A stretch of DNA of 25,507 bases from a virus. The notes under the pieces are model-generated. The model worked only from the letters and a program-made list of their open reading frames with translations, was not told where the DNA came from and did no database searches. The translations under genes and the position numbers were made by a program. Below, one piece after another: positions 18,764 to 19,455 of this stretch (within the stretch, counting starts at the first letter, position 1; each line of letters opens with the position of its first letter). The stretch lies in the UHGV virus genome UHGV-0069400. One strand, given 5' to 3'.

Positions 18764-19270
18764 TTGAGTATTTTCAATAAACACGCACACCAGGAACGTC
18801 CGTATATCGTCATAGTTGATATTGATGGAACAATATCAGAGGCAACTGAAGACAGACTGCATTTGCTTCCGCCACCAGGTAAAGGTGCATTAACAAAGGA
18901 CTGGAACGAGTTTAATCTCGCCTGTGACACCGATACTCCCATCACTCCAGTTATTGATATGGTGCGCCAGTTATTTAACGTTTACACGGTCTGGTTTGTA
19001 ACCGGGCGCTGTGAGATCGCAAGGGATAAAACACGAGCCTGGCTGCGGAAGTACGTAACAAACGGGGCTGAGCCTTTGCTATCTATGCGTCCTGCCACCG
19101 ATGACAGAAATGACGGCCCAGCAAAGATTGATCTCCTTAAGAAAATTGGTCTAAGTAAAATCGCGTTCGCGCTGGAAGATAAGATTGAAGTGGCGCGTGT
19201 TTTCAGGAGGCACGGCGTGCTTACGTTAATGGTCAGGGAGTATGAAAATGCGCTTCTTCATCAACAATGA
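18764..19270 (+). CDS. HAD-superfamily phosphatase/hydrolase-like protein
   Basis: 168 codons, TTG start with GAGGAGGG upstream. HAD motif I IVIVDIDGTIS; later VWFVTGR and DD residues. Confidence 0.55.
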   Translation: MSIFNKHAHQERPYIVIVDIDGTISEATEDRLHLLPPPGKGALTKDWNEFNLACDTDTPITPVIDMVRQLFNVYTVWFVTGRCEIARDKTRAWLRKYVTNGAEPLLSMRPATDDRNDGPAKIDLLKKIGLSKIAFALEDKIEVARVFRRHGVLTLMVREYENALLHQQ

Positions 19271-19299
19271 TTGCTCTAATAAATCTTGATTTTTAAAAC
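19270..19299 (+). promoter_or_regulatory. C1-type operator overlapping a candidate promoter
   Basis: ATTGCTCTAATAAATCT at 19270-19286 (1 mismatch) overlaps the TGA of the upstream gene. TTGCTC (19271-19276), 17-nt spacer, TAAAAC (19294-19299). The following ATTTTTAAAACG block is shared with the 17129 site. Confidence 0.55.
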
Positions 19300-19368
19300 G
19301 GAGAAAGTGAAAATAAAAACATGCCGCAAGGCGCGGCATGTATCCAATCAATCACAGGAGCTGAAAAT

Positions 19369-19455
19369 ATGAACACGGCATTCAAAATCATTATGGCCGC
19401 GATCTATTTCTGGCTGTTCTCTATCACTTTTGGCGGCATCGTCGCACATGGGTAA
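19369..19455 (+). CDS. Small hydrophobic peptide (28 aa)
   Basis: Not in the supplied ORF track. AGGAG 10 nt upstream. Translation MNTAFKIIMAAIYFWLFSITFGGIVAHG has a single TM segment. Preceded by an 8-bp hairpin CATGCCGC/GCGGCATG at 19320-19340. Confidence 0.4.
   Translation: MNTAFKIIMAAIYFWLFSITFGGIVAHG

Follow-up and report, generated by a model that had tools for sequence, protein, structure and literature searches.

What is encoded at the entrance of the variable cargo region of P1-like phage-plasmids? P1 is a workhorse among model phages, and in Enterobacteriaceae P1-like phage-plasmids often carry cargo for resistance and defence. We addressed this question in the UHGV virus genome UHGV-0069400, a P1-like phage-plasmid of 25,507 nucleotides (nt), the whole of which is called the window here. 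Positions 19270-19455 hold a short block composed of an operator, promoters that overlap it, a hairpin and a 28-codon open reading frame (ORF). In the explanation that we favour as a whole, with a probability of about 0.65, this block would be the head of a C1-gated transcription unit with a hairpin at the 5' end of its mRNA and a bona fide gene for a small transmembrane (TM) protein. The operator and the promoters are already known; the new part consists of the hairpin, the leader and the ORF of 28 amino acids (aa).

The window is 99.2% identical to phage P1 over positions 19100-19600 (501 nt), and over 19255-19470 it matches plasmid 3 of E. coli MS14385 at 100% identity. The local gene order is ppp-pmgQ-pmgR-pmgS-pap, followed by the operator/hairpin/small-ORF block and then by variable accessory genes, and every window gene downstream of the block lies on the + strand. 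The block was found in 868 PLSDB plasmids. In a survey of P1-like phage-plasmids, pmgT-humD was one of eight highly variable regions (PMC9603915), and a CRISPR interference screen scored four genes, pap, pmgT, pmgU and pmgV, as dispensable to the lytic growth of P1 (PMC10695390).

The 28-codon reading frame as a gene

Conservation of the ORF was assessed in two samples of IMG/VR contigs, one anchored on pap, which is unbiased for the ORF, and one anchored on the ORF's own 5' end. The 28-aa frame is intact in 73 of 75 pap-anchored loci, both exceptions being rearranged after codon 19, and in 107 of the 109 ORF-anchored loci. Among 79 distinct haplotypes, parsimony placed 10, 7 and 30 events at the first, second and third codon positions of the ORF, in comparison to 56, 23 and 261 in pap, and the operator and promoter DNA beside the ORF accumulated 1.2-1.5 events per site. 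The variants comprise 9 synonymous and 11 non-synonymous changes over 18.3 and 65.7 sites, respectively (binomial p = 0.017; p = 0.015 when restricted to codons 11-28), and the only common variants of the ORF are synonymous.

Orthologues were also found at greater distance. In the Cronobacter phage JK004, whose Pap is 73% identical, the operator is the same, a hairpin and the leader CCAATCAATCACCGGAGCC are present, and an ORF of 53 codons begins at the same place. Three further lineages, recovered from public assemblies by protein searches and represented here by L211 to L214, encode orthologues of 53, 53 and 48 aa, located after pmgS or pap and before differing cargo. The ORF DNA is only ~50% identical among the five lineages, P1-type included, and the open frame and the hydrophobic span are kept in all of them. 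Residues M1, K6, A11 and W15 are invariant in the six sequences compared; in addition, all six keep the hydrophobic span, position 13 is aromatic, and positions 18 and 22-23 are taken by small or polar residues. Between the P1-type peptide and L214, 17 of 25 residues are identical, with a proportion of synonymous differences (pS) of 0.80, i.e., saturation, and a non-synonymous proportion (pN) of 0.19. The ratio of non-synonymous to synonymous substitution rates (dN/dS) is 0.09 for L211 against L212, 0.15-0.3 over the hydrophilic tails of the long orthologues and 0.4-0.7 for the most distant pairs. In sequence terms the P1-type protein looks like a version truncated right after the TM helix.

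Beyond these lineages, a profile search of 1.84 billion representative proteins returned no members. An IMG/VR scan with the JK004-type leader motif gave chance matches only, and a scan of IMG/VR with the JK004 Pap retrieved only P1-type loci. A Pap-based scan of GTDB genomes found two close relatives only, and PLSDB contained no near relative of L212.

The preliminary description of this DNA, made from the sequence alone, had proposed a 28-codon ORF with a good Shine-Dalgarno (SD) sequence encoding a single-TM peptide, and had named lack of conservation as a ground for discarding it. The ORF is present, with AGGAG 8 nt upstream of the ATG at 19369. Its hydrophobic span is long enough to cross a membrane, the best 19-residue Kyte-Doolittle mean being 2.10 over residues 7-25 (2.04 in the JK004 orthologue), and only 5 of 185 short ATG-initiated ORFs of the window reach a mean of 2.0 or more. 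The protein is kept across five P1-like lineages.

From the intact frame, the third-position bias and the syntenic orthologues, we conclude that the 28-aa ORF has the sequence signature of a bona fide protein-coding gene under purifying selection. The opposite view, that the block is kept merely as promoter or recombination-junction DNA and that the frame is accidental, can draw on the shortness of the ORF, as a 28-codon frame stays open by chance about a quarter of the time, on the conserved block ending exactly at the cargo junction, and on the omission of the ORF from reference annotations. It does not account for the third-position bias, for 17 of 25 identical residues at saturated synonymous sites, or for a frame and a hydrophobic span that survive in five lineages at ~50% DNA identity, and we hold it to be very improbable.

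The ORF is left unannotated in the P1 reference record and in the RefSeq plasmid that is identical here. One NCBI record (P0008) calls the exact 28-aa form. The SJ46 gene J46_0098, annotated as 'membrane protein', is the same ORF in the same frame with a 44-aa product. We rejected this longer form, which would initiate at an in-frame ATG at 19321, inside the hairpin stem, and which lacks an SD and is absent in the other lineages. Further NCBI entries read 'membrane protein, partial' in E. coli P1-like plasmids. None of these records, that of SJ46 included, carries functional information, and no model in Pfam, NCBIfam, PHROG or PADLOC matches the peptide. The peptide is a family-less, predicted small membrane protein of a known kind, mostly unannotated and essentially unstudied.

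Table 1 Features of the block and of the cargo junction, in positions of the window.
Feature	Position	Strand	Details
C1 repressor operator (P1 OpmgT, former Op88)	19270-19286	+	ATTGCTCTAATAAATCT; annotated in AF234172
Predicted sigma-70 promoter P2pmgT	19271-19299	+	-35 TTGCTC (within operator), -10 TAAAAC; AF234172
Predicted sigma-70 promoter P1pmgT	19286-19314	+	-35 TTGATT (19286-19291), 17-nt spacer, -10 GAAAAT (19309-19314); annotated in AF234172
Stem-loop	19319-19341	+	9 base pairs, loop AAGGC; at predicted transcript 5' end
CA-rich unstructured leader	19342-19368	+	CCAATCAATCAC; SD AGGAG at 19356-19360
28-codon gene	19369-19455	+	MNTAFKIIMAAIYFWLFSITFGGIVAHG; single-span hydrophobic peptide
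Junction	19453-19467	+	stop TAA inside SD of next gene, TAAGGGGGA; first cargo ATG at 19465
First cargo gene	19465-20193	+	242 aa, PmgT-like, phrog_874

The transcription unit and its proposed 5' hairpin

The preliminary description was right about the architecture of this locus, in which a repressor-gated promoter, a 5' hairpin and a single-TM ORF lead an accessory operon, and all of these elements lie at the positions that it gave. The operator-overlapped promoter corresponds to OpmgT (Op88) with P1pmgT and P2pmgT of the annotated P1 record, and the 8-base-pair (bp) hairpin without a T-run is borne out on the + strand. What had been missed is that on the minus strand the hairpin is followed by TTTTTATTTT and is scored as terminator-like.

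The operator, which was placed by adding 16599 to the locus coordinate, has one mismatch to the 17-bp asymmetric C1 consensus ATTGCTCTAATAAATTT and is kept in JK004 and in L211-L214; six operator-like sites occur in the window, in comparison to 0.14 expected from shuffles. C1 control at OpmgT is predicted from the GenBank record, whose annotation refers to previous deposits of P1 Op88; a literature search on Op88 turned up no P1 publication dealing with the locus. Both promoters have weak matches to the consensus, as a generic sigma-70 scan with a threshold of 9 of 12 called no promoter here on either strand. P2pmgT matches the consensus weakly and, when the sequences are read side by side, is poorly kept in the other lineages. 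The -35 of P1pmgT begins at the last operator base, and its layout of TTG(A/T)TT, 17 nt and nAnAAT is held in all five lineages, with differing spacer sequences; because of this, P1pmgT is taken as the predicted working promoter.

The hairpin has a core of 8 bp (CATGCCGC/GCGGCATG), which a flanking A-T pair extends to 9 bp. In its P1-type form it folds with -16 to -17 kcal/mol (z = -3.1), and 1 of 200 shuffles folds equally well. It is the least variable segment in P1-type relatives, with 0.22 parsimony events per site as against the 1.2-1.5 of promoter DNA. Rfam has no family for the hairpin region above the gathering cut-off. In every lineage the predicted start of transcription, ~7 nt past the -10, falls at or inside the hairpin foot.

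The position of the hairpin is constant, 4-8 nt after the conserved -10, and the stem sequence differs from lineage to lineage: TTGGCAGTCAC/GTGACTGCCAA in L211 (z = -4.3), TTGGCGGTCGC/GTGACCGCCGA in L212 (z = -3.2), AAGGCCAC/GTGGCCTT in L214 (z = -2.2) and GGCCGC/GCGGCC in JK004 (z = -0.95, not significant alone). Covariation was scored in the five sequences with 9-nt loops (JK004, L211, L212, L213 and L214), which represent four lineages, on fixed 31-mers; MAFFT failed to register the hairpins across lineages. Stem positions pair in 90.9% of cells, compared with 18-48% when the partners are slid, double compensatory changes affect 6 of 11 stem pairs, and none of 500 shuffles reaches the observed score. 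Single-sided changes in the stem are G·U pairs in the sense of the + strand. P1-type loci vary in the stem by C to U substitutions at two positions (8 haplotypes) and by a single mismatch in the pair that closes the loop; the substitutions give G·U on the + strand, and an RNA from the minus strand would have A·C mismatches there. Only P1-type loci have the minus-strand T-run, which is nothing more than their A-rich -10 region read on the other strand; JK004, L211-L213 and L214 lack it.

On account of the compensatory changes, the G·U pairs that suit only the + strand and the lack of conservation of the minus-strand T-run, we read the hairpin as acting in the + strand RNA, as a putative 5'-terminal mRNA stem-loop and not as a terminator. 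In view of how E. coli mRNAs generally decay, its role is probably protection from 5'-end-dependent decay; both this stabilising role and the start site are inferred.

The leader that follows has a nearly invariant motif across lineages, CAATCA(C/T)(A/C)GGAGC, and varies little (0.41 parsimony events per site among P1-type loci). Centroid folds that include the start codon, made for four lineages, leave the leader and its SD without pairing up to the ATG.

The loops add a separate observation. Despite the differing stems, the 9-nt loops of the non-P1 lineages are alike and conform to RCRCUWYCA (e.g., ACGCTATCA at L114 3041-3049, GCACTACCA at L211 1746-1754 and GCGCTTCCA at L214 2958-2966), and the P1-type loop is a different 5-mer. 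A common loop sequence hints at something more specific than stabilisation.

The terminator-like score on the minus strand invites two other explanations. One is a system resembling type I toxin-antitoxin loci, in which the peptide would be a membrane toxin and an antisense RNA of ~80 nt, transcribed from inside the ORF, would cover its SD and start codon, running from a candidate -10 CATAAT (19395-19390, minus strand) to the minus-strand terminator (19341-19319). The size and hydrophobicity of the peptide fit type I toxins, the hairpin with TTTTTATTTT scores as an intrinsic terminator, and minus-strand positions 19313-19400 give matches to the small RNAs GcvB (20.3 bits, E = 0.023) and isrK (11.7 bits) in Rfam. 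These scores, however, lie far under the gathering cut-offs of 42 and 50 bits, respectively, and the matches are probably driven by the hairpin and the T-run. The generic scan found no promoter-like site on either strand, and the candidate -10, judged by eye, lacks a -35 and is not kept in JK004. Four of five lineages have no T-run, the A-rich tract behind it is accounted for by the promoter -10, and the G·U pairs of the stem would be A·C mismatches on the minus strand. Finally, the mRNA leader is open instead of locked, and expression is already gated by C1. A minus-strand terminator or antisense small RNA was thus rejected as a candidate on the grounds of the unconserved T-run, the missing promoter and G·U pairs that fit the sense strand only, and the toxin explanation as a whole appears very improbable to us.

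Alternatively, the P1-type hairpin could double as a minus-strand terminator that shields pap and the morphogenetic genes from antisense or convergent transcription, for instance from hsdR. The geometry in the window is terminator-like, and a convergent hsdR ends ~80 nt downstream of the ORF in 23 of 109 relatives. Nevertheless, all downstream genes of the window lie on the + strand, the T-run is limited to the P1-type lineage, and the hairpin is equally conserved with and without hsd (nucleotide diversity, π, of 0.015 vs 0.012). We therefore regard such a second function as very unlikely, and retain the + strand stem-loop.

Cargo junction and possible translational coupling

Homology among P1-like elements ends at ~19459, four bases past the stop codon of the ORF, and is followed by at least two cargo types. 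The next gene begins at the same ATG (MKGEVKE..., PmgT-like) in 82 of 109 IMG/VR loci; in 23 of 109 it is the convergent type I hsdR, ending ~80 nt downstream, and the small ORF is then the only cistron of the unit. The ORF is intact, with neither frameshift nor stop, in all 23 of these hsd-type elements. In the window, the accessory operon after the PmgT-like gene includes PAPS-reductase-like, Ead/Ea22 and DUF551 proteins; it falls in variable region 8 of the published survey (PMC9603915). As the cargo differs both between and within lineages, the block does not depend on a particular downstream gene. Nor is it tied to pap, since the divergent lineage L214 lacks pap and has the operator, hairpin and small-ORF module directly after pmgS (L214 2835-3147).

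The hsd-type cargo is a convergent hsdR-hsdS-hsdM locus (e.g., L102 1276-7444). Peptide variants seen in these elements are G22D, G23S, G23D, T20I and A10T, and leader and promoter are also more varied there. In addition, ~280 conjugative or mobilisable plasmids (IncF in the sample inspected) carry only an 84-bp relic of the ORF that is 98.8% identical and corresponds to window positions 19376-19459, from codon 3 to just past the stop (L004 5001-5084 and L005 5001-5084). On one side of the relic stands an IS1 copy, on the other a type I hsdR with its 3' end; the arrangement looks like a footprint left when the hsd cassette was taken from a P1-like element.

The stop codon of the ORF is only 9 nt from the next start. 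Simple translational coupling to the next cistron is plausible, as the stop overlaps the next SD or, in other lineages, forms an ATGA stop-start overlap. Between 19455 and the cargo, neither a terminator-like site nor an alternative structure was found (z of the region fold = -1.4, not significant).

Coupling might even be the whole purpose of the ORF: its translation would load ribosomes onto the first cargo gene and keep the SD of that gene open, and might also keep the mRNA at the membrane, with the peptide as a by-product. The TAA inside the next SD, 9 nt before its ATG, and the ATGA overlaps elsewhere are what such a device would show. In the minimum free energy fold, UUCUCU within the ORF pairs with the downstream GGGGGA, at an overall z of only -1.4, and promoter, leader and peptide are more variable in elements with convergent hsd at equal pap diversity, a contrast that is phylogenetically non-independent and not significant when counted as mutation events. 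A pure coupling device has no need of the purifying selection on amino acids that is seen across lineages, no terminator or antiterminator lies between ORF and cargo, and none of the 23 hsd-type elements has a broken ORF. We consider this reading unlikely, albeit worth keeping in mind. For a classical regulatory leader, the 9-nt gap without a switch, the purifying selection and the intact ORF in all 23 hsdR elements likewise make the case unlikely.

Proposed role of the block

Taken together, we propose that the pmgT (Op88) transcription unit of the P1-like phage-plasmid, repressed by C1, begins with this block. In the lysogen, C1 would occupy the 17-bp operator that overlaps the promoter -35. 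Upon derepression, transcription would start at ~19320-19322, at the foot of the GC-rich stem-loop, as deduced from the promoter position, and the stem-loop would protect the transcript from 5'-end-dependent decay in the manner of an ompA-type stabiliser. The open CA-rich leader and the strong SD would then drive translation of the 28-residue peptide with its single TM helix, for which K6 on the cytoplasmic side suggests an N-in topology. Terminating ribosomes would be well placed to re-initiate on the next gene because the stop codon lies inside its SD. In this scheme the gene of the peptide would be the single cistron kept in place ahead of cargo that is otherwise exchanged freely. Our best guess for its function is an early-expressed inner-membrane modulator acting through helix-helix contacts, in preference to a stand-alone toxin or a regulatory leader; the classical forms of both are disfavoured.

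Several points weigh against this explanation. The transcription start, the translation of the ORF and the membrane insertion of the peptide are predictions, and the stabiliser role depends on the predicted 5' end. Diversity among P1-type loci is low, so that the within-lineage coding test reaches only p ~0.02. Over the TM segment, dN/dS between JK004 and the P1-type is ~0.7, which suggests a sequence constraint consisting mostly of a demand to stay hydrophobic, plus a few fixed residues. A placement of the conserved residues on one helical face was dropped (permutation p = 0.53), and the helix-packing idea is without statistical support. The peptide did not turn up in literature searches, made with its sequence and on ribosome profiling of small proteins of P1. 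Moreover, non-synonymous variants are commoner with convergent hsd cargo, in 11 of 22 haplotypes as compared with 3 of 55 (Fisher test at haplotype level, p = 2e-5), and π at codon positions 1 and 2 is 0.0225 in hsd-type elements vs 0.0019 at equal pap diversity. The pattern hints at a lesser importance of the peptide where co-directional cargo is missing. Counted by hand as mutation events, ~9 non-synonymous and 7 synonymous changes (hsd) stand against 3 and 4, which is not significant, and the lineages are non-independent; with so small a contrast, relaxed constraint with hsd cargo was kept as a lead only.

A wider version of the idea, which we deem quite unlikely, would treat operator, promoter, hairpin, leader and micro-membrane-protein as a fixed 'expression head' behind which cargo is swapped, be it PmgT-like genes, methyltransferases, Ead/Ea22 genes or type I restriction-modification systems, with the small TM protein needed for expression or action of that cargo. 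Here the peptide might hold the polycistronic message at the membrane as it is being made, or act as a partner of cargo proteins, and the 9-nt loop might be a protein-recognition site, similar to boxB, beyond a stabiliser.

In any case, the P1 reference annotation misses a conserved gene, as judged from its selection pattern, and a conserved RNA structure at the entrance of the variable cargo region. If the peptide or the hairpin controls cargo upon derepression, the block would be relevant to the deployment of accessory genes and could serve as a compact repressor-gated expression module. If the peptide is merely another small membrane protein, the outcome is an annotation fix.

Further features of the window

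A strong terminator-like hairpin (11 bp and a T-run) lies at 18711-18739 on the + strand, between the pmgS stop and the pap start, and the P1 record annotates no pap promoter. Two other short hydrophobic ORFs preceded by SD-like sequences were noticed on the + strand: one of 27 aa, MSWPEAFATVGIVMAAALGLYSICRWW, at 24292-24375, which overlaps the DUF551 stop codon where the accessory operon behind the block ends, and one of 35 aa at 5804-5911, downstream of a TerB-like gene.

A 1095-aa ORF at 367-3654 (+) has C5-cytosine and D12 N6-adenine methyltransferase domains, like P1 Dmt, which we take to be ~340 aa shorter. It also matches Hint_2 (residues 77-126) and LAGLIDADG_3 (residues 298-362), and these matches suggest that an intein carrying a homing endonuclease interrupts the methyltransferase. 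The ORF is followed at 3645-3672 by a bivalent C1 operator.

Comparison with known systems

The closest counterpart is Op88/OpmgT of P1 itself (AF234172), which is the same locus with an identical operator position and the same promoter hexamers. The P1 record has nothing annotated between promoter and pmgT, i.e., no hairpin, leader or 28-aa ORF. The cargo differs as well, with a 242-aa PmgT-like gene and a PAPS-reductase-like gene here and pmgT-pmgU-pmgV in P1. In SJ46, the start chosen for J46_0098 in the hairpin stem is not conserved elsewhere.

Type I toxins such as Hok, TisB, Ibs, ShoB, ZorO and DinQ resemble the peptide in being shorter than 60 aa, in consisting of a single hydrophobic helix and in being encoded on a mobile element. 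In contrast to these toxins, the present locus has no supported antisense RNA and no locked mRNA fold, the peptide bears no sequence similarity to them, and its gene is repressor-gated and polycistronic with the genes downstream.

Regulatory leader peptides include those of the attenuation type and monitoring substrates of the SecM/MifM type. As in these, a short ORF stands directly upstream of operon genes and is coupled to them, and the N-terminal TM segment recalls MifM. Unlike these, the locus has neither an attenuator nor an SD-sequestering switch, and the gene persists without co-directional cargo. Furthermore, a P1-type peptide of 28 aa cannot sense membrane insertion co-translationally, because it is still within the ribosomal tunnel at termination.

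For the hairpin, the nearest relatives are the 5'-terminal stabilising stem-loops of E. coli mRNAs, of which the ompA 5' untranslated region is the type. The RCRCUWYCA loop shared by the non-P1 lineages sets the present hairpin apart, as a pure stabiliser would not need it. What the two have in common is the layout: a GC-rich hairpin stands within a few nt of the 5' end, here the predicted one, an open leader with an SD follows, and the structure is conserved while the sequence is not.

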